Shown here: one piece after another, positions 2,828-24,743 of the stretch
How positions within the stretch are numbered: position 1 is the stretch's first letter
Layout of the letters: each line of letters begins with the position of its first letter
DNA from: a virus
Taxonomy: Duplodnaviria > Caudoviricetes
Direction: 5' to 3' (one strand)
Virus record (IMG/VR): IMGVR_UViG_3300037783_000021
Coordinates: 1 to 27,142 of that record
Length of the DNA: 27,142 nucleotides
The notes under the pieces: generated by a model
Database searches by the model: none
The model's input: the letters and a program-made list of their open reading frames with translations, nothing else
What the model was told of the DNA's origin: nothing
Translations under genes and position numbers: made by a program

Positions 2828-3001
2828 ATGGCCAAGGAAGAGCTCAAATTTCGCAACGTCGCTGTCCTCCGGGACGACCATGAGCGACTCCGCCGTCTCG
2901 CCGACCACGACCAGCGGTCCATGGCCCGGGAACTGACGGTGCTGATCCGGAACGCCTACATCGAAACCTTCGGTGAGGACATCGTAGAAGGGGCCGCGTG
3001 A
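2828..3001 (+). CDS. Arc/ribbon-helix-helix-like DNA-binding protein
   Basis: MAKEELKFRNVAVLRDDHERLRRLADHDQRSMARELTVLIRNA: beta-strand followed by helix-RS-helix pattern; RBS AGAGG. Confidence 0.7.
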   Translation: MAKEELKFRNVAVLRDDHERLRRLADHDQRSMARELTVLIRNAYIETFGEDIVEGAA

Positions 3002-3017
3002 GCGGCCCCTTTCCTTC
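2988..3017. terminator. Intrinsic terminator hairpin between convergent genes
   Basis: AAGGGGCCGC-GTGA-GCGGCCCCTT (GNRA loop) followed by a T/C-rich run. Confidence 0.7.
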
Positions 3018-3576
3018 ACTGATCGACCTCGAACTCGTTCGCCGACAGCGCCCATACCACCATCGATGCCCGGTCCTGCCCCGCCCGGCGGTACACGTCC
3101 GCGCGGGCAATGGTACCGACCTTGTGCATGGCACTGCAGAGGGCGTGCATCTCCGTCGTCCCGAGGCTCGGGTCACCCATCACCTTGACCAGCGTGCCGG
3201 TGCAGGTGGGGCCCGTGTCCCGCAGGTGCTGCAGAATGCGGTCCTTGATCGTGGGCTCGGCCGCGACGTCCGGTTCTACTACTTCGGCCGGGTCGTCGTA
3301 GTCCTGATCCACCGTGACCACGACCCGACGGGGGTTGTCCGCCCGGATCGCCCGGAACGGCACGTCGTCCCGCCGGTCCTCGTAGTTGGGCAGGATCTGA
3401 CAGGTCACCGTGTCACCCTCCCGCAAGCCCACAGCAGAGACGAGGCGAGCGTTCAAGAACACCCGATCCCCCTCCGCCGTGACCCCGAAGCCGCAGCCAG
3501 AGAAGGAGATGGTGTCGAGGAACACCCGCACCTCCTTTGCCGTGGGGAACTTAGTGAAGGCCTCTGCGCGATCCAT
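3016..3576 (-). CDS. Hypothetical protein with cold-shock/OB-like N-terminal domain and possible winged-helix C-terminal domain
   Basis: GFGVTAEGDRVFLNARLVSAVGLREGDTV resembles the CSD RNP1/RNP2 pattern; IKDRILQHLRDTGPTCTGTL is HTH-like; RBS AGGAGA. Confidence 0.65.
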   Translation of the reverse strand: MDRAEAFTKFPTAKEVRVFLDTISFSGCGFGVTAEGDRVFLNARLVSAVGLREGDTVTCQILPNYEDRRDDVPFRAIRADNPRRVVVTVDQDYDDPAEVVEPDVAAEPTIKDRILQHLRDTGPTCTGTLVKVMGDPSLGTTEMHALCSAMHKVGTIARADVYRRAGQDRASMVVWALSANEFEVDQ

Positions 3577-5675: not shown

Positions 5676-6038
5676 TCACTTCCCGCCCAGCTCCTCGTCA
5701 TAGACGTCCGCGATGATCCCGGCCACCAGCTCGGCGACCGTGCCACCCTTCGGCACCACACTGTAGAGCCACACCCTGACGTCGTCAGGCAGGGTTGACA
5801 GCATGAGTGTCATGGACCCGGTAGGCGGATCGTCCTTGCCCCGGAGCAGGGTCGGGGTTTGGCGCGGCGGCAGCATCCCGGCCTCCCGGGCATCCCTGAC
5901 GTACAGGTGCGCCATGCTCAGGCTGATGTCCAAGGCCTCAGCGATGTCCTTGGTCCTCGCTCCTTCCTGCTTCATTCTGGTGACCTGCTGCAGGCGTATC
6001 GCGCGGGGCTTCTTCCACGGGGCTATTCCTCCGGGCAT
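5676..6038 (-). CDS. HTH-containing protein (probable paralogue of 3850-4236)
   Basis: VTRMKQEGARTKDIAEALDISLSMAHLYVRDAR HTH; strong RBS AGGAGG. Confidence 0.75.
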   Translation of the reverse strand: MPGGIAPWKKPRAIRLQQVTRMKQEGARTKDIAEALDISLSMAHLYVRDAREAGMLPPRQTPTLLRGKDDPPTGSMTLMLSTLPDDVRVWLYSVVPKGGTVAELVAGIIADVYDEELGGK

Positions 6039-6204
6039 CTCTTGCCTCCTTTCTTATCCTGTTGATTTCGCCCTGATTTCCATGGGCCATGCGGTGGATG
6101 ACTTCCAGCTGGTCCGGGGTTACCCACCATGCGGGGATCTTGACGTATCCCGCCCGACGCAGGGCTGCCGCCACGCCAAGATTGGGCGACGGACCTCCGC
6201 TCAC
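5938..6204 (-). CDS. Hypothetical protein (LRRAGYVKIPAWWVT...)
   Basis: GTG overlapping the dCMP deaminase stop, RBS GGAGA; 3' end overlaps the next gene by 101 nt. Confidence 0.55.
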   Translation of the reverse strand: MSGGPSPNLGVAAALRRAGYVKIPAWWVTPDQLEVIHRMAHGNQGEINRIRKEARDARRNSPVEEAPRDTPAAGHQNEAGRSEDQGHR

Positions 6205-11320: not shown

Positions 11321-11472
11321 GGCGTCGATTCCTCGCGGGTGTGCAAGACGGTTTCACGCGACAGGGGTTCCCGGGAGGCGCGTCATGTAGAAAGATACTC
11401 CTGTTTCTTGCCTCACCCCCGCCCCGCGTTGTATGTTCTGCCCAACCCTCAGCAGATCGGAGACAGCCGTCG

Positions 11473-11994
11473 ATGGCCTACCCTCGCCAGCTTACCGCCC
11501 GACAGGAAACCTTCTGCCAGCTCATGGCCGAGGGCGTATACTCGCAGACCGAAGCAGCCCGTCGTGCCGGGTTCGCCGAAAAGACCGCGCGCTCTGTCTC
11601 CGGCCGAATGCTGAACGGCCTAGACTACCCGCACATCGTCGAGCGGATCGCCGAGATCCGGGAAGAGCGGCAGCGCAAGTACGGGGTCACCCTGCAGGGG
11701 CAGCTCGAGCGCCTGTACGATCTGTCTCGGGGCGCGGAGCAGGCCGGGCAATATGCGGCGGCAATCAACAGCGAGAAGATCCGGTCAGCGCTGGGCGGGC
11801 TCACCATCGACCGGCGGGAGACGATCAACACGCTGGACCAGCTGTCCCGGGACGAGATCACGGCTCGGCTTGCCAAGCTGGCCAAGGAGTACCCGCAGGC
11901 TTTTGCCTTGGCCAAAAACATGAAAGACGTCACCCCGCGCAAGGCTGACCCGGACCTGATCGAGTACGTGGACAACCCTTCCGACATCGACTAG
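11473..11994 (+). CDS. terS: Terminase small subunit
   Basis: LTARQETFCQLMAEG...SQTEAARRAGFAEKTARSVSGRML HTH typical of Terminase_2; RBS GGAGA before ATG 11473. Confidence 0.85.
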   Translation: MAYPRQLTARQETFCQLMAEGVYSQTEAARRAGFAEKTARSVSGRMLNGLDYPHIVERIAEIREERQRKYGVTLQGQLERLYDLSRGAEQAGQYAAAINSEKIRSALGGLTIDRRETINTLDQLSRDEITARLAKLAKEYPQAFALAKNMKDVTPRKADPDLIEYVDNPSDID

Positions 11995-12945: not shown

Positions 12946-12959
12946 CCTTGGTCGTATGG

Positions 12960-13365
12960 CATTTGCGCCACAGTACTGTGGCCCGCGCGCCACGGTCCGA
13001 GGTCCTTGGTCCTGCGGCCCTGCGGCCCTGCTGCCTTTGTGCAACGGTGGTGTTGCCCTAGCGCCACGCGGCTTTTGTGCCACAGTGGTGTGTCCTGCGC
13101 GCCACGCCCTGCGGCCCTGCGGCCCTGCGGCCCTGCTGGCGCTTGTGACCCGAGGCCCAAGTGGTCTCGGGCCGCAGGCTCGAGACCACTTGGGCCGAGG
13201 ACCTTTGACTTGTGCCGAAGGCACTCAGTTCGAGGGCCGTAGGCCCGAGCGCCGAGGAACGAGGCCACCGATCCAAGGTCCGAAGGACCGTGGATCAAGT
13301 ATCTTGCGCAAAGCGCTCATTTTCCTGGGCTTTTTGACCCAAGCCACCCTGTTGAGTGGCTTGGG
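12960..13365 (+). repeat. Non-coding repeat and hairpin block
   Basis: Palindrome GCCACAGTACTGTGGC (12967-12982); CCTGCGGC tandem octamers (13011-13034, 13108-13139); duplicated TTTGTGC(A/C)AC(G/A)GTGGTGT (13036, 13074); four C-GNA-G triloop hairpins (13154-13296); hairpin 13338-13365. Confidence 0.85.
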
Positions 13366-13384: not shown

Positions 13385-13603
13385 TTAGGTCAGGTCCACC
13401 ACGGCAAGGCCTTGCCCTTTGGCGTGCTCCATAGCGTGAAACTTGGTCTGGTGGTCGCTGCTGCTACTTGGATTTGTTGGGTGATCCAACAAGCGGAACT
13501 CCGGATCCCCTATTTGCGCGGCCCACATGTCCGCGACGTCGGGACAGGTGATCACGCCCTGCACCAGCCAAGCGACTTCTGGGTTTTCTGCTGCGTTTGT
13601 CAT
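13385..13603 (-). CDS. Hypothetical protein
   Basis: MTNAAENPEVAW...; RBS AGGAG. Confidence 0.65.
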   Translation of the reverse strand: MTNAAENPEVAWLVQGVITCPDVADMWAAQIGDPEFRLLDHPTNPSSSSDHQTKFHAMEHAKGQGLAVVDLT

Positions 13604-13659
13604 GTCTTTTGCTCCTAGTTGAGGTTGGTGCCGGGGACCGAAGCCCCCGGCGGTTGGTG

Positions 13660-14346
13660 TTAGTGCTCGATGATGGCGATGGACTTGGCCTGCTTGCCGC
13701 CAGCGCAGAGCTTGCAGTCGGCGCATTGCACCCGACGGCCAGCCTCCTTGCTCGCAGGGCAGACCACCTCGTGCGCCGGGTCGATCCTGTCGGTGCCCGT
13801 CAGGACCCGGAAGGTGCGACGACCGTGCCGCCAGTGCGACAACGCCTGTGCGTAGCTGTCCACCGACTGCATGGCGATGTCAGGACGCCACCCGCTCTGG
13901 TGCGAGTAGGCCGTCCAGCCGGACGCCTCGGACAGCAGCTGCTCCCAAACGTGATCCGGGCAGGCTGCCGGGTCGCCGTAGGTGCCGACCCTGACCATCC
14001 GTCCGCGTCCGAGCGCAGCCCGGTCGTGTCGCAGGTCCGGATAGACCCCACGCTGTGCCGCTTTCCAGACCGAGCCCGGTCCGTATGCGAGGTTGACGTA
14101 GCAGCGCCGACCCTTGGCTTGCTTGGCCTTGGGGTCATCGGTCGGATAGCCCCGGAGGTTGCAGTTGCCGCAGATCGCGACGTCGGCGCCGGTCTTGCTG
14201 GCCTCGGCCGGGTGCATGTCCCGGTGCAGGATGTAGGTCTGCAGGACCCGACCGGTCTTGGTGTTCCGGTCGCTGTAGGTGCCGATGACGATGATCGGCG
14301 AGCCATCGAGTAGTGACGGCCCGTTGAAGATTATGCCCTTGTCCAT
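13660..14346 (-). CDS. Cys-rich putative Fe-S protein (phage Gp88-like / radical-SAM-like)
   Basis: NTKTG, CGNC...CYV, VRVGTYGDP, WTAYSH, CPAS...CADCKLC; RBS GAGGAGG. Confidence 0.75.
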   Translation of the reverse strand: MDKGIIFNGPSLLDGSPIIVIGTYSDRNTKTGRVLQTYILHRDMHPAEASKTGADVAICGNCNLRGYPTDDPKAKQAKGRRCYVNLAYGPGSVWKAAQRGVYPDLRHDRAALGRGRMVRVGTYGDPAACPDHVWEQLLSEASGWTAYSHQSGWRPDIAMQSVDSYAQALSHWRHGRRTFRVLTGTDRIDPAHEVVCPASKEAGRRVQCADCKLCAGGKQAKSIAIIEH

Positions 14347-14621
14347 TAGTGGTCCTCCTCGTGATAGATGCGGTTCCAGTCTTCGGTGCAGCTGGTCAGT
14401 CGGCCGTAGCGCAGCACCTCCGACTTGTAGATGTCGCCGATCTCCCAAGACCCGAAGGTGTTGGGCGACCGTGCGGCGACGAGCCAGCGTGCGTAGGGGT
14501 CCTTGGCCTCCGAACTCGCTTGCTTGTAGGTGCGCAGGACGCGCCACTCCCAATCGCCGTGGGCTTTGAAGGTGGCGTACGGCTTGTCGATGTGCGCCGT
14601 CTTGCGGAATGGGTTGGTCAT
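14346..14621 (-). CDS. Phage hypothetical protein
   Basis: NPFRKT...PYATF...WEWRVLRTYK...DPYARWLVAARSPNTFGSWEIGDIY; RBS GAGGAG; TAATG coupling. Confidence 0.85.
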   Translation of the reverse strand: MTNPFRKTAHIDKPYATFKAHGDWEWRVLRTYKQASSEAKDPYARWLVAARSPNTFGSWEIGDIYKSEVLRYGRLTSCTEDWNRIYHEEDH

Positions 14622-14676
14622 TAGTGGTTCTCCTCGTTGATGTGGTGGCCCGGGACGTCGTGCCCCGGGCCGGGGT

Positions 14677-14844
14677 TCAGTCTTCTTTGACCTCGACTAC
14701 GTGGGCGTTCTGGGCCCGGTCAAGGTCAACGGATCGCGCGACGTGGCGCAGCGCGGCCACCATGTCTTCAGCTTCGAACACGTATTGCCCCCATGTCCGG
14801 TCTTCGCGTTCGAGGGTCAGGCGAAAGGTCCTGCGGTCAAGCAT
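14677..14844 (-). CDS. Hypothetical protein (55 aa)
   Basis: MLDRRTFRLTLERED...; RBS GAGGAG; TGATG coupling. Confidence 0.65.
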   Translation of the reverse strand: MLDRRTFRLTLEREDRTWGQYVFEAEDMVAALRHVARSVDLDRAQNAHVVEVKED

Positions 14845-15053
14845 CAGTGGTTCTCCTCGTTGAGTTGTGCTGCGATCAGGGCTTCCTGCGCGTAGGTGAT
14901 TGCGCCGACGCCGATGACGCCTTCGGGCGGGTTGTGGTAGGCGTCCCAGTAGACCTTCGTCAGGCGACCGAGTTCCTTGACCCAGCCCGGGTCGTCGTCC
15001 TTGCCGCACTGCCAGATTGCCTGACACAGCGACTCAAGATCCGTGTAGATCAT
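14844..15053 (-). CDS. Hypothetical protein (69 aa)
   Basis: MIYTDLESLCQAIW...; RBS AAGGAGA. Confidence 0.7.
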   Translation of the reverse strand: MIYTDLESLCQAIWQCGKDDDPGWVKELGRLTKVYWDAYHNPPEGVIGVGAITYAQEALIAAQLNEENH

Positions 15054-15102
15054 GTCTGTCTCCTTGGTTGAGGGTGGGGCGACCGAAGCCGCCCCGGTTG
15101 GT

Positions 15103-15327
15103 TCACTTGTCCAGATGCTCAAGCTTGAGCCGGAGCACCGTCGAGGCTTGCTCAAGGGCGCGCTTCCGCACGGCCTCGAGGTCCTCGACCGCCCGACGTG
15201 CGTAGCGGTCTTCCTCGGTGCGAGGCTTCAGCGCCTCGATCAGCAGGTCTATCGCTCGCAGTTCGAGCACTGCGACCACTTTGATTGTCTCTTCCGAGAC
15301 GTAGCTGAACTCGATTCCGTTGGACAT
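15103..15327 (-). CDS. Hypothetical protein (74 aa), first gene of the leftward island
   Basis: MSNGIEFSYVSEE...; RBS AAGGAGG. Confidence 0.75.
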   Translation of the reverse strand: MSNGIEFSYVSEETIKVVAVLELRAIDLLIEALKPRTEEDRYARRAVEDLEAVRKRALEQASTVLRLKLEHLDK

Positions 15328-15349
15328 TTCGTCCCTCCTTGGTTGAAGT

Positions 15350-16025
15350 AAGCACCACACATGAACCCCGTGCGGTGTGTCCACCGGGTGCCCTAAATTT
15401 TCATCGCGCCCCGCTGCGCTTGCGCAGCGGGGGAATCGTCAAGGCGAGCTTTAGCTCGTTCAGCTTGGCTTTTTCGTCCGCCGTACGGGCTGTTCTGGGC
15501 GCTTTATGGTTGGATGCAGGTGCGCCGTTGATGGCACGCGCAACGTTGAGAAAAAGCCGCACCTTGACGACGCATGAAAATTTGTGGGCCTCCCGGAGGG
15601 ACAACCCGCACGGAGGTTCATGTGTGTGTGCAGCTGAGCCGACCGACACGCGACTGAGCGGCCCAAGGGACCCAACTGATCGTTGCGTCCCAAGGCCCAA
15701 GGACAGCCCGCCAACGGCGGGTGTCCCGGGCTGCAGGGACGCGGCGACTCAGTTGGGATGGCCGCTCACCGCGTGGCGCGGCGTGGTGCCGCTAGAGCTG
15801 CCCTCTGTTCAGGCTCGAAGGCGAGGATCCAAGGACTGCCTAAGTCCTTGGCCGACTGCGGTTCGGAGACCGCACGGGCCGAAGGCCCGTTCACTTATTC
15901 CCGACGAACCCATCCACCCGTGCACGGGAGTGCGAAAGCGACACTCACCCGAAGGGCAGAGACACCGCAGGTGGCTCTGTTCATGAGTGGCGCGGTCCCG
16001 AGCGATTAGCGAGGGATTCGCCAAA
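15350..16025 (+). other. Large structured non-coding element (folded ssDNA promoter/ssi-like, or large ncRNA)
   Basis: Two long imperfect hairpins (15352-15631 and 15647-15775) plus a run of short hairpins (15829-15979); G-T wobbles favour folding of the + strand; no credible CDS. Confidence 0.8.
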
Positions 16026-16392
16026 CCAACACGGCCTCTTCTCTTTTCCCGCGCACGTGTGACGCACCACACAACAAGAACCCAGAGCCACGGACCGAGG
16101 ACCGTCTCGCACAATGCACCACGCTACCAAGAGCCCGTGCACGACGCGCGCCAGCCTCAGGGGTAACTGCAGCCATACGACCGTGGTCATCGAGCCAGCG
16201 ATTGACCCCCATCCCCCCTTTTCCGGGGGTGCCGGTCTGTGCTGCGCCCGTATATTGTTTGAAACGCTGTTGCAGCCGGGGCTATTTTCATTGGACCACA
16301 AGTAGACAACAACCGTCTGGGACAAATCGAAAAACCCAAGGCCGCATCAATTTTCCGCCTCTAAAAATCGCGCGGATTTTTGCGTTTGGGTG

Positions 16393-16596: not shown

Positions 16597-16641
16597 TCTG
16601 CTAGGGTCGGGCCACGTTCCTTGCACCACGGACCTCGGACC

Positions 16642-17538
16642 ATGGAAAACTCGATCCTGAGCCTCCCTCCCGGTGAGTTTCTTTTTGCTCTGAACGAGCT
16701 TGGTTTGCCGGATGACCAGCGAGAGTTCTTGCTGTCTCAGTACGGGGCCCCCGAACCTCGGCCCCCGGTCCCTGAGGGTCGGTCGTTTGGCTATCACCTG
16801 CTGGACAACATCATCGGGTTCGACGACGACTATGTGACTCGCGGCGAGGCGCTCAAGTCTGGCATGAGCGACACCCTGTCGGCGATTGCGGCGGACCCGT
16901 TGGGTGCTGCGTGGTCTGCTGCAAAGTCTGTTCCGGAGCAGGCCTACGACCTGATCGACCGTGGCATGCGTGGCGAGGCCACCCCCCTTGAAATGCTTGA
17001 GATCGCGACCATGCCTGCGCTGGGTTCTTTGACTGCGGCGAGCAGGGCGGGGCGCGGGATTGCCAGCCTTGCAGACTACGACCCGACCGTGGCCAGCATT
17101 TTTGGGTCGGGTGCGCCGAAAGCAACTACTCCAAACCAACCCGCCATCATCAGGCCAGACGATGTCTATCGCGGTGAAGGCACGCCCCGGATTACCGTGC
17201 GTCAGACAGATCAGCCGTTTGTCGTCAGAGGTACGCAGCAAGACCAGATTGACGACATGATTCAATCAGGCTTGGTGCGGCCCAAGCCGGGCGGGTGGAA
17301 AGGATCACCACAGTTGTACTTTGGGGAGTCTCCCACGTCTCTGCCAACTGACATCAGAGCGCGACCATCGGAAACACGATTTGTGATGGTGGGCGACTCT
17401 GATAAACTAGCAGGCACTGAAGGCCCGATACCGATAGACCAACTGCGCCACGTTTGGGTTGTTAGGAATGGCGAAACGGTAGATGTTCTGCCAGAAATAC
17501 TGCGAGCCAACCGCGACTTTGGCAACACGGGACGGTAG
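16642..17538 (+). CDS. Putative virion/ejected protein with possible ADP-ribosyltransferase-like C-terminal domain
   Basis: 298 aa; C-terminal VVRGTQQDQIDDMIQSGLVRPK...LYFGES resembles the ART R-G...aromatic-F strand pattern; domain call tentative. Confidence 0.7.
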   Translation: MENSILSLPPGEFLFALNELGLPDDQREFLLSQYGAPEPRPPVPEGRSFGYHLLDNIIGFDDDYVTRGEALKSGMSDTLSAIAADPLGAAWSAAKSVPEQAYDLIDRGMRGEATPLEMLEIATMPALGSLTAASRAGRGIASLADYDPTVASIFGSGAPKATTPNQPAIIRPDDVYRGEGTPRITVRQTDQPFVVRGTQQDQIDDMIQSGLVRPKPGGWKGSPQLYFGESPTSLPTDIRARPSETRFVMVGDSDKLAGTEGPIPIDQLRHVWVVRNGETVDVLPEILRANRDFGNTGR

Positions 17539-17540
17539 CC

Positions 17541-18869
17541 ATGGACCCCGAAGATTTTTACGACCGATACCTGTGGGACGAGAAGACGGGCACTCCGTTG
17601 GGTGTTCGTCCTCCGCGCGCTGACGACCCAGCTTATCCTACTCCTCCGCGTGATGCCGAGGGTTCCGAGGATACGTTCGGTGACACCTCGCGGTATTTTC
17701 TGGATCGCAGCCGCAGGGACATGGCGGACGCACTCCGCGCCCTGTCCCAAGCCGAGGGTTGGGGTGAGCGCTTACTCAGTGGGGTAAGCATCCCTCTCAT
17801 TGGCATTGAGGGTTTGGGGGCACAGGGCTTGGCCGCCCTGTCGGAAATACTGCCCCATTCTGTGACGCACCCGCACCTGTCTCCGGATCAGGCGGAGCGG
17901 GACTTTGTGGAGACATTCCTGTACGAAATTCCGGCGTCGATGGAGGGGCACGCGGCTGGTTTGCCCGGGCGATTGGCGCAGACGGAGCACAGGCTGCGGC
18001 GCGCGGCGGGGGATTTTACGGATCAGTACCCCTCTGACGAGCTTGGGTATTTTCACTCTGCTTATGCGCCGTCACGGACGCACATGGAGCAGATGGCTCA
18101 GCCGGGGTATCGGCTTAACCCTGCCGAGATATCTTATCTAAATCGTATTGCCGAGGCGAACCGGCTTAGGGACGAGGGGCTTACGAATCGGGAGATTTTC
18201 GAGCAAACTCGCATCATGCTGGTCCCACAGCGGGACGCTGCAGGCGACATTGTTGAAGAGGTTGCCCTTACGGCCACGCCGCGTCCTCATGCCTACCCTA
18301 CTCAGGTGGCCCCGGATGCGCGAAGCAGAGCCCTAGGTGCCGAATTGCGGGGCAGCGAAGAGGAGGTGCGGGACCTAATTGACTTCGGACCCGATGTGGA
18401 GGGGCTGTATCCCGGAGGAGGCCCCCGCGCTGATGTCCGTTTTGAGAGGTTTTCCGACCCCGGCGTACGTGGCGAATACGACCCAAGTTCCAACACTATT
18501 TACGTCTCCCGCCTCCGTCGTCACCTCGACGATTTTATTCCCATTGTTGCCCACGAGGGGGAGCATGACGTGCAAGAGTTCTCTGGTCTGCTTCCCGCCG
18601 CCCGAGGCGGAAGTCCCGATGACCTGCCCGGCAACCCGGCGGAAAGATTTGCCGCGTATGAGGCCAACTTGGGTGAGATGTTGGCTCGACGGGCCGAGGG
18701 CGACGATACGACGTCCGTCGCCGCTGGAATTATGCAGGCGCTCAACCCCTTCCTCCGCGAAAGTGTGCATTTACCAGATTTGATGCGGGGTGAGTTGCTG
18801 CCGCGTTTTACCGTCCGCGTTCCGGCCAACATCTTTGAGGCCAACCGGAACGTGGACCTTGAACCTTGA
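17541..18869 (+). CDS. Putative virion/ejected protein with LPD23-like region and HEXXH zincin metallopeptidase (polyvalent-protein type)
   Basis: LRDEGLTNREIFEQT; RGEYDPSSNTIYV; VAHEGEHDVQ...ARGGSP...YEANLGEMLAR. Confidence 0.75.
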   Translation: MDPEDFYDRYLWDEKTGTPLGVRPPRADDPAYPTPPRDAEGSEDTFGDTSRYFLDRSRRDMADALRALSQAEGWGERLLSGVSIPLIGIEGLGAQGLAALSEILPHSVTHPHLSPDQAERDFVETFLYEIPASMEGHAAGLPGRLAQTEHRLRRAAGDFTDQYPSDELGYFHSAYAPSRTHMEQMAQPGYRLNPAEISYLNRIAEANRLRDEGLTNREIFEQTRIMLVPQRDAAGDIVEEVALTATPRPHAYPTQVAPDARSRALGAELRGSEEEVRDLIDFGPDVEGLYPGGGPRADVRFERFSDPGVRGEYDPSSNTIYVSRLRRHLDDFIPIVAHEGEHDVQEFSGLLPAARGGSPDDLPGNPAERFAAYEANLGEMLARRAEGDDTTSVAAGIMQALNPFLRESVHLPDLMRGELLPRFTVRVPANIFEANRNVDLEP

Positions 18870-19709: not shown

Positions 19710-20474
19710 ATGATGGGCTACGGCTACGAGAACGCGGCAGGCGACCGCATTTCCGCGCTGATCGACATGATCAACGGCGGAGGGCCGGGCCGCTCCGGCG
19801 GCACCTTCGAGGGCGGCGGCATCCTGTCTCTGTTGGCGAACGCAGTCGCGAAGCCCTACGGCTCTGTACGGGAGCGCCCCGGACATACGCCCGTGGGTGC
19901 GGCGGCCGCTCCGATGGGTGCGACGGCTGTTCCGATGGACGTGCTGCGGTCGGAGCCTGTCGATACGGCTGTTCTTCCCGACGACGACACCGCTGTTCCC
20001 GTTGACCTGCTCAGGAGCGTGGTTGAAGGGGCAATCGACAGAGCGGAAGAGCGGCCCTCGCTCCCCGGTCTTGCTGAAGAAGGCTACCGGGACGCCATTT
20101 CTCGGCCTGCGCGCACCGGCGGGCGCACTTTCATGGAAGAAGACCTCGCTGTTCTGGGCAACCTCCACCCGGACCTCGCGGCCCTGTTCCGTGGCATGCG
20201 GCCGGGGGACCCCCTTTCCCCGCAGCAGGCCATGTTCCTCGACGCTGCGCGTGTTGGCTCTGCCGAACCGACCGCAACCCTTACTCCCCCGCAATATACC
20301 GTGCGGAAGGCACCGCCGCTGCAGGGTCCGCCTGTTCCGGCTCCGACCTCTGCCCCAGAGTCTCTCTATCCGCCCTCCGGTTTTACGCTGGACCAGCTCG
20401 AGAGAATGTCTCCGCAGATGAGAGCCATGGCCGAGGAGCACAACCTCAAGAACTTGGGGCGGCTGAGCCCCTGA
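19710..20474 (+). CDS. Hypothetical protein, probably virion-associated (Gly-rich N-terminus, Pro-rich C-terminus)
   Basis: DMINGGGPGRSGGTFEGGGILSLLANAVAKPYGS; RBS AGGAGG; location in the late region. Confidence 0.75.
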   Translation: MMGYGYENAAGDRISALIDMINGGGPGRSGGTFEGGGILSLLANAVAKPYGSVRERPGHTPVGAAAAPMGATAVPMDVLRSEPVDTAVLPDDDTAVPVDLLRSVVEGAIDRAEERPSLPGLAEEGYRDAISRPARTGGRTFMEEDLAVLGNLHPDLAALFRGMRPGDPLSPQQAMFLDAARVGSAEPTATLTPPQYTVRKAPPLQGPPVPAPTSAPESLYPPSGFTLDQLERMSPQMRAMAEEHNLKNLGRLSP

Positions 20475-20502
20475 CCCCTCGCCCTAGGACCCGAGGTACA
20501 CC

Positions 20503-20883
20503 ATGTCGTCCTCCGCCTCGGCAATCGGACGAGCTGGAGAGTTCTTGGCGAGCTACATCCTCGAGACCTTTGGCGTCGAGGTACACCATGTGAGCCGCGA
20601 CGGGGCGGATCTGTGGTGCAAGATCCACGATTCACGGATCGTGACCATAAGCGTCAAGACCGCCTCGACTGCGTCGAACAGCAAGAAAACCGGCCACACA
20701 TACCGGTTTTGCACGCCAAACACGGTCCCGGTCGATTACTTCGGCTTCGTTGCTCTGGACCGCCAGATCCTGCTGGTTCGGCCCTTCAAGGAGAAGATGC
20801 CACGAACCACGACGATCCCGGCTCGGACCTTCAACGAGGGCAACCAGCGCAGGACGATTGAGGAAATGATCGCCGCTTGCTAG
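20503..20883 (+). CDS. PD-(D/E)XK-family endonuclease
   Basis: GRAGEFLASYIL...DGADL...ISVKT...VDYFGFVAL; RBS GAGGT. Confidence 0.75.
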   Translation: MSSSASAIGRAGEFLASYILETFGVEVHHVSRDGADLWCKIHDSRIVTISVKTASTASNSKKTGHTYRFCTPNTVPVDYFGFVALDRQILLVRPFKEKMPRTTTIPARTFNEGNQRRTIEEMIAAC

Positions 20884-20911
20884 GATGCGGGCAACTTTTC
20901 GGAGACGTCCC

Positions 20912-21781
20912 ATGTACAACGAAGGTCAGCGCGTCCTAGCTCGCATGCCTGCCGAGCACCGGGAGCACCTCATTCGCGAGGCGGAGCGGCTTCAGATCCC
21001 GCTCGAGGTCGCTGTGGCCCTTGTGCATCAGGAGAGCGTGGGCCGCGAGGACGCGCGCAGCCCCAAGGACGCCTATGGTTACACGCAGCTCATGCCGGAC
21101 ACCGCGCGGGAGCTCGGCGTCGATAGGTCGGACCCGCTGCAGAACATCACGGGTGGCCTGACCTACCTCCGCCGCCAGATGAACAAGTTCGGGAGCTTGC
21201 CGCTGGCTCTTGCCGCCTACAACGCGGGCCCGGGGGCTGTGTCGGAGTACGGCGGCATCCCTCCGTACGCCGAAACGCAGGACTACGTCAAAAAGATCCT
21301 CGGCCGCCTCGGTCTCGACGAGAACGCTGCACCCACTGGCCAGAACCGGGGCATGTTCGGCGCACTGCCGGAACGTGCGCAGGCGCGTATCCAAGGTGTC
21401 AGGGAGGCATTTGCCCCCACCCCTGAGGGCGAGCCCGCACCGGGCGTCTTCGGCCGCTTGGACCGGGGCCTCGGAGCACTCTTCGGCCGTGGGGAATCGG
21501 GGCCCGAGGGCCCAGATCCGGCGTCCGTGGAACGTCTTCGGGCGGCCCTTGAGTCGGGCGACATCAGCCAAGACACTTATGAGCAGATGTATGCTCGTTT
21601 GCTGCTGGAGCCGGAGGACAACAGCCGCGCGATGGGTCTCATGAACCTGTCGGACTACCTGATGAACAGCTACGAACCCCCTCGTTTGATCGGCTCGTCC
21701 TTGTCCACAACTCCCCTGCGTGGTAGTTCTGGGTCCGGAACAAGCGCGATACAACGACTGGGAGTCAGACCGCTGGCATGA
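20912..21781 (+). CDS. Lytic transglycosylase (SLT domain), probably virion-associated
   Basis: QES catalytic motif, GYTQLMPDTA, ALAAYNAGPG, ETQDYVKKI; RBS GGAGA. Confidence 0.92.
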   Translation: MYNEGQRVLARMPAEHREHLIREAERLQIPLEVAVALVHQESVGREDARSPKDAYGYTQLMPDTARELGVDRSDPLQNITGGLTYLRRQMNKFGSLPLALAAYNAGPGAVSEYGGIPPYAETQDYVKKILGRLGLDENAAPTGQNRGMFGALPERAQARIQGVREAFAPTPEGEPAPGVFGRLDRGLGALFGRGESGPEGPDPASVERLRAALESGDISQDTYEQMYARLLLEPEDNSRAMGLMNLSDYLMNSYEPPRLIGSSLSTTPLRGSSGSGTSAIQRLGVRPLA

Positions 21782-22236
21782 CGGTAGAATACAAAGAGCT
21801 GACTGTCGAAAACATTGCAGATGTCATGGTTCTCGGGCTGGAGATGCACGAGGAAGCCCTGCCGAAGAAGTACCCGGTAGACATCGAGTATGCCGCCCAG
21901 AGGTGCTACGAGAACGTCATCCTGTCTGAACACGCCTTCGGCGCCATCGCCATGGACGGCGAAGAACCGGTGGGCATGCTCATGGGGCAGCTGGCCCACT
22001 ACGATTGGGCCCCGGTCCTGTTTGCCTACAACCTGATCTGGTACGTCAAACCGGCGCGCCGTGGATCGATGACCGCGTTCCGCCTGCTTCGGATGTTCGA
22101 GCGCTGGGCCAAGGAGAAAGGCGCGGTGCACGTGGCCATTGGTCTGGCCTCCGGGGTGCGCACGAAGAAGACGGGCAAGGCCCTGAGCCGCGCTGGCTAC
22201 CGGCACATGGGCGGGAACTTCATCAAGGAAGTCTGA
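21778..22236 (+). CDS. GNAT-family acetyltransferase
   Basis: WYVKPARRGS motif A, FERWAKEKGA, LSRAGYRHMG; ATGA coupling. Confidence 0.85.
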   Translation: MTVEYKELTVENIADVMVLGLEMHEEALPKKYPVDIEYAAQRCYENVILSEHAFGAIAMDGEEPVGMLMGQLAHYDWAPVLFAYNLIWYVKPARRGSMTAFRLLRMFERWAKEKGAVHVAIGLASGVRTKKTGKALSRAGYRHMGGNFIKEV

Positions 22237-24743
22237 TGGACCTGAACCTGAACGCCATCCCTGACGAGGTTCTTCGCGAGATCCTGCAGCTGACGGAGCT
22301 CCAAGCCAAGCAGGAGCGGCAGCAGCGCGTGCACGACAGCTTCATGGCCTTTGCGCACCACGTCTACGAGGGGTTCATCGAGGGCGCGCACCACCGGATC
22401 ATCGCCGAGAAGCTCGAGCAGGTGGCGCGTGGGGAGCTGAAGCGCCTGATCATAAACATGCCCCCTCGCCATGCTCTTGATATTAAAGAAAAAGTTCTTA
22501 CGACGGATGGCTGGAAGACCATCGAGACTCTTCAGGTGGGGGATTTCGTCTACGGCCCAGATGGATTGCCCACGGAGGTGCTGGGAAAGTCCGATGTTTT
22601 TGAAGACCGGGACCTGTTCGCTGTACGTACAGACGACGGTTGCGAGGTGGCGTGTGATGGGGAGCACATCTGGACCGTCCGATTGGATCGAAAGTACAAA
22701 TCCTACCAAGACTACACCACGGAGCAGCTCTTTGCCCGAGAGCAAGGAGCGTTTGTCCGCACGAAGCGCTCCGGACAGGTCGAGATTCGGGAGGACGTGG
22801 TAGACCCTAAAAATGTTCGAGCGGCAATGCTGCCCGCTGTTTCTCCTGTCGTCCGACCCGAGGCGAACCTTCCGGTAGACCCCTACGTGCTCGGCATTTG
22901 GTTGGGGGACGGGGCAGCTGCGCAGACTACGTTTACGGCCTCGGATGAGGATGCAAAGTGGATTCGAGCGGAGTTTGAGCGCCGTGGGTACACGACCAAG
23001 GACCGGGCCACTTCGCAGACCTTTGGCGTGGACGATCTGAAAGTTCCACTGCGTGACGATCTTGGGGTGCTTGGCAACAAGCACATCCCCGAGTCGTATC
23101 TGTTGTCCTCTGTCGAGCAGCGCATGGATCTGCTGCGGGGCCTCATGGACTCTGACGGAAACGTCACCAAGGACGGCCAGTGTTTCTTCACGCAGAAGGA
23201 TCCGGTGTTTATCCACTCCGTGCGGAAGCTGCTTTGGTCTCTCGGCATCAAAAACACGACCCACAGCTGGGCTGCGAAGCTGGAGGGGAGAGACTACGGA
23301 CCTGCGTATCGCCTGTCCTTCTACGCGAAGGACTGCTGCCTTCTGCCGCGAAAGAGGGAGCGGACACGGGCCGCCCGAGCGGGGCGTTTCATCCGCGTCT
23401 CCAAGCTCGAGCGCCGAGGCCCGACGCAGTGTATCCGAGTTGCTCGCGAGGACGGCCTGTTTCTCGTCGGCGAGGGGCTGGTCACAACACATAACTCCAA
23501 GTCCGAGTTCGCCTCGTACCTCATGCCTGCATGGTTCCTCGGCCGGAACCCGAAGCTGAAGATCATTCAGGCTACGCACAACACCGAGCTCGCCGTCCGC
23601 TTTGGCCGCAAGGTGCGAGACCTGATCGAGGACCCGCAGTACCAAGAGGTGTTCCCAAACACCAAGCTGAAGGAAGACAACAAAGGCGCGGGCAAATGGG
23701 GCACCACGGCGGGAGCCGAGTACTTCGCCGCAGGCGTCGGGGCGGCTGTGACCGGTCGAGGCGCGGACCTGTTCATTATCGATGATCCGCACTCCGAACA
23801 GGATGCCCTGTCCGACACGGCGTTCGACCACGCCTACGAATGGTACACCTCCGGTCCTCGTCAGCGTCTCCAGCCCGGCGGGGCTATCATCCTCGTGATG
23901 ACACGATGGGGGAAGAAGGACCTTACGGGCAGGCTGCTCGAAGCGCAGTCCTCAGACCCCATGGCGGACCAGTGGGAAGTGGTGGAGTTCCCGGCCATCC
24001 TCCCCAGCGGTGAGCCTTTGTGGCCGGAGTTCTGGGAAAAGAACGCCCTCCTGTCGATCAAGGCCTCGCTGCCAGTCGGCAAGTGGTCCGCGCAGTGGCA
24101 GCAGCAGCCGACCAGCACCGAGCAGGCCATCGTCAAGCGCGAGTGGTGGCGGGACTGGGAGAAGGAGAAGGTCCCGGAGCTCAAGTACATCCTGCAGGCG
24201 TACGACACGGCGTTCTCGAAGAAAGAGACGGCGGACTACTCGGCCATCACGACGTGGGGCGTCTTCGAGCCCGACGAGGGCGGCAAGGACCACGTCATTC
24301 TGCTCGACGCCAAGCGCGGCCGGTGGAGCTTCCCGGAGCTCAAGGAAGTCGCGTGGGAGGAGTGCGAGTACTGGGACCCGGACATGGTCATCGTCGAGGC
24401 CAAGGCCTCCGGCCGCCCGCTGATCGACGAGATGCGGACGCGCGGCATCCCCGCTGTCGGCTTCTCCCCGGGCCGCAAGGCTGGGGGCGGCGGCATAGAC
24501 AAGACGACTCGGATGCACACGGTGTCTCCGCTGTTCGAGGCCGGGATGGTGTGGGCCCCGCTGGGCAAGAAGTTCGCCGACGAGGTGATCGAAGAGGTTG
24601 CCTCGTTTCCAAATGGGGAGCATGACGACTTTGTGGACTCAATGACGCTTGCTCTGATGCGCTTCCGTCAGGGTGGCTTTATTGCTATACATGACGAAGA
24701 GTTGCCGGAAGAAACCATGCCTCGCAAACGGGAGTACTACTGA
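22236..24743 (+). CDS. terL: Terminase large subunit containing an intein (835-aa precursor, 494-aa mature)
   Basis: Walker A INMPPRH|SKSE, Walker B FIIDDPH, VMTRW, nuclease motifs AYDTA, IVEAKASG, HDDFVDS; TGATG coupling. Confidence 0.95.
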   Translation: MDLNLNAIPDEVLREILQLTELQAKQERQQRVHDSFMAFAHHVYEGFIEGAHHRIIAEKLEQVARGELKRLIINMPPRHALDIKEKVLTTDGWKTIETLQVGDFVYGPDGLPTEVLGKSDVFEDRDLFAVRTDDGCEVACDGEHIWTVRLDRKYKSYQDYTTEQLFAREQGAFVRTKRSGQVEIREDVVDPKNVRAAMLPAVSPVVRPEANLPVDPYVLGIWLGDGAAAQTTFTASDEDAKWIRAEFERRGYTTKDRATSQTFGVDDLKVPLRDDLGVLGNKHIPESYLLSSVEQRMDLLRGLMDSDGNVTKDGQCFFTQKDPVFIHSVRKLLWSLGIKNTTHSWAAKLEGRDYGPAYRLSFYAKDCCLLPRKRERTRAARAGRFIRVSKLERRGPTQCIRVAREDGLFLVGEGLVTTHNSKSEFASYLMPAWFLGRNPKLKIIQATHNTELAVRFGRKVRDLIEDPQYQEVFPNTKLKEDNKGAGKWGTTAGAEYFAAGVGAAVTGRGADLFIIDDPHSEQDALSDTAFDHAYEWYTSGPRQRLQPGGAIILVMTRWGKKDLTGRLLEAQSSDPMADQWEVVEFPAILPSGEPLWPEFWEKNALLSIKASLPVGKWSAQWQQQPTSTEQAIVKREWWRDWEKEKVPELKYILQAYDTAFSKKETADYSAITTWGVFEPDEGGKDHVILLDAKRGRWSFPELKEVAWEECEYWDPDMVIVEAKASGRPLIDEMRTRGIPAVGFSPGRKAGGGGIDKTTRMHTVSPLFEAGMVWAPLGKKFADEVIEEVASFPNGEHDDFVDSMTLALMRFRQGGFIAIHDEELPEETMPRKREYY
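22473..23495 (+). mobile_element. Class 3 intein (Ala1) with LAGLIDADG homing endonuclease, 341 aa
   Basis: Starts ALDIKEKVLTTDGW; block B CDGEHIW; block F TQCIRV; block G VTTHN|S; endonuclease motifs LGIWLGDG and LRGLMDSDG. Confidence 0.92.

Follow-up and report, generated by a model that had tools for sequence, protein, structure and literature searches.

The window analyzed here, a 27,142-nt stretch from IMG/VR record IMGVR_UViG_3300037783_000021, carries just upstream of a leftward island of small genes a long branched stem-loop, hairpin I, which is a real, selected single-stranded DNA structure. With a probability of roughly 0.55, we consider it to be a promoter for host sigma-70 RNA polymerase that is gated by single-strandedness, Frpo-like in its working but not an Frpo homolog. 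The initial annotation had proposed a Frpo-like single-strand promoter at this position, and its interpretation is partly supported by our analysis. Feature coordinates are collected in Table 1.

Table 1. Features of the structured tract and its surroundings, in window coordinates.
Feature	Position	Strand	Remarks
Leftward island, six small genes	13385..15341	-	First ATG 15327, RBS 15335-15341
DUF7227/phrog_2554 gene	13660-14340	-	Within leftward island; weak DUF7227 match
Hairpin I, long branched DNA stem-loop	15352..15631	+ (template strand)	z -10.35, family, covariation; predicted single-strand promoter
Left-arm side hairpin and GAA linker	15409..15435	+	In duplex DNA, interrupts the left arm's -35/-10 spacing
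-35-like box TTGACG	15564..15569	+	Right arm; pairs with 15437-15442
Spacer helix	15570..15588	+	Pairs with 15391-15408 and 15436; last base an invariant G (15588)
-10 position	15589..15600	+	Internal loop in most relatives; can form a GNA mini-hairpin
GACAAC	15600..15605	+	Distal -10-like hexamer, or invariant A 15601 as putative +1 (template T 15380)
Hairpin II and three small hairpins	15640..15895	+	Two of the small hairpins with GNA loops; z -7.8 and -3.2
Branched module	15930..16002	+	Profile matches in F plasmid and microvirus
GGGGTWAC, C-tract and TATWWTG block	16160..16265		Conserved; contig-end cluster

The contig is part of a tailed phage, with terS (11341-11994), terL (22005-24743), an SNF2-type helicase and a dCMP deaminase. 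TerL is 56 to 62% identical to its counterparts in HTVC023P, HTVC027P, DSL-LC04 and 023Pt_psg01; the contig spans 27 kb, and the genomes of relatives about 60 kb. The terL gene, for the terminase large subunit, also contains a LAGLIDADG-bearing intein. A GapR-like gene points to an alphaproteobacterial host. PADLOC and Pfam gave no function for the island genes beyond the weak DUF7227 match. The phrog_2554 gene lies 1 to 3 kb from the record end in most of the mycobacteriophage matches listed, and just before the RNA polymerase region in the T7-like roseophages CRP-118 and CRP-403. Six genes classed as early in HTVC027P, gp34-39, are located between terS and terL (supplement table S3 of PMC12753301, available in part), and by comparison with relatives the leftward island likely consists of early genes.

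Several other elements were seen around the island. At its far end (12950-13290), the octamer GGCCCTGC is repeated, a GCA loop caps an 18-bp hairpin, and the + strand has four C(GNA)G hairpins; this stretch is a candidate origin, and its features are absent from most carriers of the hairpin. A repeated motif resembling CCAAGGACCAAGAACC or CCACGGACCTCGGACC immediately precedes start codons in many intergenic gaps between 3838 and 19309; it is read on the sense strand, for genes of either direction. Long rightward genes (16621-18869 and 19710-21781) lie between the candidate genome end and terL, with no family match other than a lytic transglycosylase at 20885-21781.

Hairpin I is a selected single-stranded DNA structure

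The hairpin at 15352-15631 is confirmed. All five nested pairings reported in the initial annotation are present, as are the two hairpins on the left arm (15409-15432, with 11 bp, and 15445-15458), and the stem base lies 25 nt from ATG 15327, as described. The DNA fold of 15340-15640 reached -99.3 kcal/mol on the + strand (z -10.35) and -96.6 kcal/mol on the - strand (z -10.66), and with RNA parameters the z scores were -11.9 and -11.6; in each case, none of 100 dinucleotide shuffles was as stable. Folding both strands with both parameter sets had been proposed as a check, and z was about -10 to -12 throughout. The two most stable of 384 windows of 280 nt along the contig start at 15541 and 15611, because the structured tract runs on past hairpin I, to about 16002. 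The first part of this continuation, hairpin II (15640-15785), has the z of -7.8, and its stems and those of the small hairpins covary in relatives.

Protein and pattern searches supplied most of a set of 298 loci, and the window was included as well. A profile of the right arm matched 157 of them, representing 67 distinct sequences, which were reduced to 26 nonredundant ones sharing under half of their 8-mers; one locus (L201), seven pattern matches with unrelated folds and all sequences lacking the long stem were left out of the family. Many aquatic phages carry it, in two groups, one HTVC023P-like and the other consisting of smaller podophage contigs with terS directly right of the tract. 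The groups are unrelated to each other and range from low to high GC, and the tract occupies the same slot in both. Conservation covers the stem base, the helix that TTGACG forms with CGTCAA, a bulged C, and a three-way junction that includes GAA and a side hairpin of the left arm. The apical stem varies freely in length and sequence, and whole elements measure 204 to 413 nt.

RNAalifold on a MAFFT alignment recovered the stem base only, and we used anchored pair counts because the variable inserts misalign the left arm. Across 23 named pairs in 20 sequences, 92.3% of cells were paired, compared with 26 to 47% in slid controls. Changes on both sides of a pair occurred in 55 cells against 19.4 in shuffles, none of 500 shuffles being as high; the family sequences are related, and these counts are not counts of independent events. 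Eight of the 10 spacer-helix pairs have changes on both sides. Absence of compensatory change had been named as a refuting outcome for the promoter reading; compensating changes were found, and the reading passes this test.

With Rfam 15 covariance models, hairpin I had no match up to E 10, nor did 18 related loci up to E 1, and DNA searches of GenBank phages returned no homolog. The family is absent from the stretches fetched of the cultured relatives HTVC023P, HTVC027P, DSL-LC04, 023Pt_psg01 and MinM2, and is therefore dispensable for the lineage. The loci L008, L023/L043, L026, L052 and L373 have the branched module with a diverged or different hairpin I, L026 retaining TTGAGG-29-TATAAC, and these are possibly further hairpin classes. 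The apical stems of L002, L027, L031, L084, L085, L129 and others contain repeated quasi-palindromic units, GAYGY-W-RCGTC with a central A.A/T.T mismatch, and GGTTC/GGTTC internal loops, both absent from the window; such units may be protein sites, or breaks that guard against hairpin nucleases.

The folding strand selected in the family is the + strand, the template of the leftward island. The window copy is among the least asymmetric of the family, with a difference of 2.6 kcal/mol between strands and only four isolated mismatches (one of them G.T and one C.C); it is nearly symmetric, and the strand call therefore rests on the family. G.T, G.G and G.A are the stabler mismatches in DNA. Isolated mismatches between the arms, scored with no credit for G.T, read on the + strand of the 26 sequences as 54 G.T to 22 A.C, 21 G.G to 2 C.C, 25 A.G to 10 C.T and 21 T.T to 9 A.A. 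The lean was toward the + strand in 22 sequences and opposite in two, with two ties, and fold energy was better on the + strand in all 26. Profile matches among the loci found through the DUF7227 gene are likewise all on the same strand, except for the window's own left arm. In 19 tracts we counted 40 GNA triloop hairpins on the + strand and 10 on the - strand (14.5 and 10.5 in shuffles), and 25 C(GNA)G loops on + against 2 on -. Mismatches, loops and fold energies thus agree with the choice of the + strand made in the initial annotation.

The family's loops and mismatches are of DNA type. GCGNAGC and GCGNNAGC mini-hairpins are very stable as DNA (PMC13037366, in part), with a Tm of 76.5 °C for both DNA GCGAAGC and DNA GCGAAAGC, and such mini-hairpins are described there at G4, ssiA and N4 signals. 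We consider it very improbable that the tract acts as structured RNA, either as a noncoding RNA transcribed rightward in + sense or as a long 5′ leader with which the island mRNA would begin. The strong fold with RNA parameters would suit such an RNA, as would G.T wobbles and GA/GA pairs, the GNRA-type four-base loops (12 on + and 3 on - in the 19 tracts) and RNA-library contigs of low depth that enter both arms. A leader would, however, need the - strand, the worse fold in 26 of 26 sequences, and a + RNA would need a promoter inside the first gene, which differs between phages. The GNA triloops also speak against RNA, since a related mini-hairpin loses much of its stability as RNA, with a Tm of 39 °C for r(GCGAAAGC) (PMC13037366, in part), as does the lack of an Rfam match. 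C(UUCG)G loops were found on neither strand of the 19 tracts, whereas a true mRNA hairpin nearby has one: a GC-rich - strand hairpin within 15070-15097 (stem-loop 15076-15097; GCAA or GCAG in relatives), located just upstream of the RBS of the second island gene and of mRNA type.

Promoter-like geometry and the promoter slot

The right arm presents the -35-like box in paired form. In alignment A1, the TT of TTGACG is invariant and GACG at least 90% conserved; its pairing probability is about 0.9 over the 26 sequences, position 6 excepted, and 3 of 24 show a G-C to T-A change on both arms. The box as originally read is thus conserved and paired across the family, and the proposed direction of polymerase, down the stem into the leftward island, fits. 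Two other elements of that reading fell away. GAAAAT, taken as the -10 box, sits in a freely covarying helix and is not conserved, and the A-tract regarded as an UP element has few counterparts, with an A-run of at least 5 just above TTGACG in only 3 of 20 aligned sequences.

Below the box, the geometry is that of a paired spacer leading to an open loop. Pairing with the left arm, averaged over the 26 sequences, is about 0.9 at TTGAC and 0.5 to 0.8 over the next 17 nt, and drops to 0.15 to 0.26 at nucleotides 26 to 29 from the start of the -35 box, the place of a -10 hexamer. The open loop begins 17.4 ± 2.1 nt after the box in the 21 of 26 sequences that fold as expected, or 15.0 ± 6.0 nt with all 26 included, five of which are predicted to misfold in the spacer. 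In the best fold of the window itself, the -10 loop is mostly closed, and opening it costs 10.7 kcal/mol. The loops of L204 and L084 are open. The three-way junction with the side hairpin and GAA lies in the spacer helix region, where the left arm has its bulged C; the junction motif occurs in 24 of 26 sequences, and the left-arm side hairpins of relatives often have tandem GA/GA pairs and GNA or CTTG loops. A spacing of 6 + 11 = 17 nt through the side hairpin was rejected, as the length of that hairpin varies.

An invariant G closes the spacer helix, and an invariant A follows 12 to 16 nt further (13 in most) in alignment A1, at the expected +1. Hexamers 16 to 18 nt from the -35 box are not -10-like (mean score -2.9). 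The hexamer that includes the invariant A (variants GACAAT, GATAAT, TATAAC, CATTAT, TATCAT and CACAGT) has a mean -10 score in the top 1.3% of background hexamers, 6 of the 26 sequences having been picked by a pattern that included GACAAT; it lies 26 to 32 nt from the -35 box, with 16 to 24 paired nucleotides between. On this model of the fold, two registers suggest themselves. We slightly favor a ready-made bubble, with +1 at 15601 (template 15380), because the 17-nt distance survives full turnover of the spacer. An alternative register remains in which the spacer would be looped out, GACAAC would serve as the -10 and transcription would start near 15369.

RNA contigs of runs X17-X20 carry no strand or end information and cover noncoding DNA too. 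Three RNA-library contigs, of low depth, enter the hairpin arms. Position 15372 was considered as a transcript start and rejected, as the two contigs that seemed to stop there continue into a diverged left arm. The low RNA cover over the hairpin was counted neither for nor against any reading.

In duplex DNA, the window offers no comparable promoter. TTGACG and GAAAAT are 6 nt apart on one arm and 34 nt apart on the other, as the initial annotation stated in noting that canonical spacing is missing. Our motif scan agrees: from the island to about 16050 it found no duplex promoter of the kind seen in relatives, the best score being 4.6. The tract is missing from many relatives that share the island and the right-hand motif; their gap measures mostly 130 to 270 nt, and in 28 of 32 tract-less relatives the best leftward promoter lies 71 to 90 nt from the first ATG, typically TTGACA-17/18-CATAAC or TATGAC. 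A promoter score of at least 8 near the ATG occurs in 19 of 32 tract-less relatives versus 3 of 24 carriers (p 5e-6), under a weight table made by hand after some of the promoters had been seen and two scan windows that differ slightly. The three carriers with a passable duplex promoter are L030, L109 and L239, and 4 of 12 carriers have a duplex promoter inside the island. An RBS and ATG stand just left of the stem in 24 of 26 sequences though the first gene differs, the other two being unreadable. Judged from these sequence comparisons, the tract replaces the ordinary promoter of the leftward island.

A cultured phage has an unrelated hairpin in this position. In Pelagibacter phage Hodr (OQ414635; locus L303, 7660-7850), a near-perfect hairpin of about 185 nt fills the interval between the first leftward gene and terS and pairs the RBS and ATG with a right-arm copy, an arm that has TTGTTA-16-TATATT. 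This hairpin may offer a test case in culture; alternatively, an inverted duplication may have produced a pair of divergent promoters there.

Likeness to Frpo and other single-strand signals

Single-strand promoters read by host polymerase are known from conjugative plasmids, which enter as a single DNA strand. The tract shares with the Frpo/ssi elements (F Frpo1 and Frpo2, ColIb-P9 ssi1-3, pESBL classes 1-3) an imperfect template-strand stem-loop of about 300 nt that immediately precedes small early genes, a 3′ arm bearing a -35-like box below a junction, 3′ hairpins followed by the branched module in identical order and polarity, and the lack of a duplex promoter, judged here by motif scan only (21 of 24 carriers score below 8 near the ATG). 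Under the same folding, F Frpo1 and Frpo2 each form a rod some 330 nt long; its 3′ arm has TGGACA or TGGACT, with a small loop roughly 24 nt beyond. These box positions are our own reading of the fold. Frpo was reportedly studied by Masai and Arai in 1997.

A profile of the module built from 28 phage copies, one false row (L215) among them, matches the F plasmid twice (E 9e-13 and 2e-11), in both cases on the template strand, where the match immediately follows, on the 3′ side, Frpo2 or Frpo1 with its accessory hairpins; the order of hairpin, accessory hairpins and module is identical in F and the window. The profile also matches the intergenic region of microvirus MH572438 (E 4e-13), on the coding strand, which is the virion strand, and cultured Sphingopyxis phage VSN-002 (locus L299), which has three copies (2978-3068, 3433-3519 and 5991-6078) near recombination genes. 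The module is widespread in plasmids, and several of the plasmid candidates listed in PMC11541004 (supplement file 7) terminate in module-like strings. We regard it as a candidate priming or protein-binding site on single-stranded DNA.

Hairpin I has no sequence likeness to F Frpo: a search of F 58000-80000 with the right-arm profile, up to E 3, gave no match; for class 2 and 3 hairpins the comparison was visual only (PMC11541004 file 7). Frpo sits beside oriT in a conjugative leading region, whereas hairpin I lies amid terminase, portal-side and phage genes, near the likely end. In Frpo-type promoters the fold brings the -35 and -10 boxes to canonical spacing; in hairpin I, TTGACG is followed by a 17-nt helix and a loop without a consensus -10, and the -10-like hexamer lies 26 to 32 nt away. 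By sequence, then, membership in the Frpo class fails on homology and location. The tract nonetheless likely resembles Frpo in its working (PMC9849209, PMC11541004 and bioRxiv 2026.01.09.698686, in part; PMC12672017, section 17).

One could suppose that conjugative elements or single-stranded DNA phages supplied the tract as a passenger cassette, its covariation predating the phage and the island being read from weak ordinary promoters. Presence is patchy (15 of 80 loci found through the DUF7227 gene have a hairpin or module match, many loci being too short to tell), the module is common in plasmids, and some carriers have the duplex promoters mentioned above. This account is nonetheless unlikely, given that hairpin I was found only in phage-like contigs, with none in F and, in two GTDB genome scans, no homolog but two chance matches, both without a hairpin; compensatory change is also ongoing, in the same slot of two unrelated phage groups from low to high GC.

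Coliphage N4 is likewise a double-stranded DNA phage that uses template-strand DNA hairpins with GNA loops for its earliest genes. In N4, supercoiling extrudes hairpins of about 5 bp, and the polymerase that reads them is brought in by the phage (PMC13434306, in part); hairpin I measures 280 nt and has a sigma-70-type -35 box, its GNA hairpins being accessory to a core of -35 box and 17-nt helix. The relative HTVC027P lacks an RNA polymerase gene (PMC12753301, in part), and no virion RNA polymerase gene was found among the window proteins scanned (27 kb of a genome with relatives of about 60 kb). Extrusion of the structure, or part of it, from negatively supercoiled duplex, with supercoiling gating host polymerase, seems to us improbable. 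Gyrase drives the extrusion of GNA-capped hairpin promoters in N4 (PMC13434306 and PMC13037366, both in part), and the window copy folds almost equally on both strands and contains an 11-bp perfect side palindrome. A full cruciform would, on a rough estimate, cost about 240 kcal/mol against 160 to 200 gained at a superhelical density of -0.05 to -0.06, apparently too much for the transcription from cruciform DNA that the initial annotation also envisaged. The family mismatches and GA/GA side hairpins, moreover, are stable on one strand only, and the covariation between arms spans about 250 nt.

Large one-strand folds used by polymerase or primase, with mini-hairpins, are also shared with sso elements (ssoA, ssoU, ssoW) and G4 microvirus origins, and raise the question of whether the tract is mainly a single-strand origin, at which polymerase or primase would lay a primer on a + strand displaced by rolling-circle or strand-displacement replication, island expression being secondary. 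The module is shared with the intergenic region of a microvirus, on the virion strand; sso elements, large folds at which RNA polymerase primes, function in a single orientation (PMC5703833, in part), and the orientation is fixed here too; Frpo transcripts prime DNA too (bioRxiv 2026.01.09.698686, in part); and a candidate cut site adjoins the tract. We nevertheless hold an origin as the main role to be doubtful. Unlike sso, the hairpin always ends beside an RBS and ATG, is tied to a gene island and stands in for a promoter; no rolling-circle initiator was found among the proteins scanned in the window, a partial genome; and many relatives replicate without the tract.

A candidate genome end and possible single-strand exposure

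About 530 nt right of hairpin I lies an end-like block (16160-16265). The motif is present in 82 rows; in 23 of these the contig stops no more than 700 nt to its right, and 6 of the 23 stop at +95 to +102, a clustering with p 2e-7 versus uniform for a window chosen after the fact. A contig whose TerL is 99% identical (L307) starts at the end-block motif; it also has an HNH-like insertion just right of the block. For the second phage group, seven short contigs were checked, and three of them stop at a G-tract..GTTAC site located 730 to 880 nt right of the hairpin; the G-tract-to-GTTAC polarity is opposite in the two groups. From sequence features, the block is a candidate short terminal repeat, or packaging site and genome end; the cluster of contig ends may instead have arisen during assembly, through k-mer overlaps at a homopolymer or at a breakpoint of strain exchange. 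The accessible parts of PMC9599517 and bioRxiv 2019.12.14.876532 contain nothing on genome ends.

Linear Streptomyces replicons have folded 3′ overhangs, palindrome arrays with GNA loops, comparable to those on the strand that would form a 3′ tail here; the Streptomyces overhangs lack promoter geometry and serve to bind the terminal proteins that patch the ends. The present tract also differs in ending about 160 nt short of the candidate end. If a genome end is at the block, it is the 3′ end of the + strand that lies there, and the tract would be exposed by resection of the - strand or by lagging-strand synthesis that stays unfinished. Single-strandedness of the whole island was considered and rejected: left of the DUF7227 gene, GNA hairpins number 7 on + versus 10 on - in 12 carriers.

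For the single-strand-gated promoter, we propose the following sequence of events. RNA polymerase would bind the paired TTGACG on the folded + strand, with opening at the ready-made loop 17 nt down and a start near 15380 (or near 15369 should GACAAC act as -10). It would then copy the left arm and run into the leftward island, and, as with Frpo, the resulting RNA might in addition serve as primer for the complementary strand. The weakest step is the exposure of the + strand as a 3′ tail of about 0.8 kb at the nearby genome end, which could arise if the - strand were resected 5′ to 3′ or if replication of the end stayed incomplete. Downstream, the module would then re-prime the lost strand and so switch the promoter off. 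The promoter is likely active only when DNA near the predicted genome end is single-stranded.

Our literature search found no host-polymerase single-strand promoter in a tailed phage, the own-polymerase hairpins of N4 aside. Tentatively, some abundant aquatic tailed phages could sense resection or incomplete copying of their own genome end, a promoter in the tail firing the terminal early island and a module borrowed from plasmids or microviruses re-priming the strand. If true, this would be a damage-gated, self-extinguishing early program, the phage counterpart of plasmid zygotic induction. The tract and the ordinary promoter found in the same slot form a natural pair, which makes the question directly testable. 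Should hairpin I work as predicted, it would represent a new promoter class and imply that a group of double-stranded DNA phages has a single-stranded stage at a defined place near the genome end and times its early genes by it.
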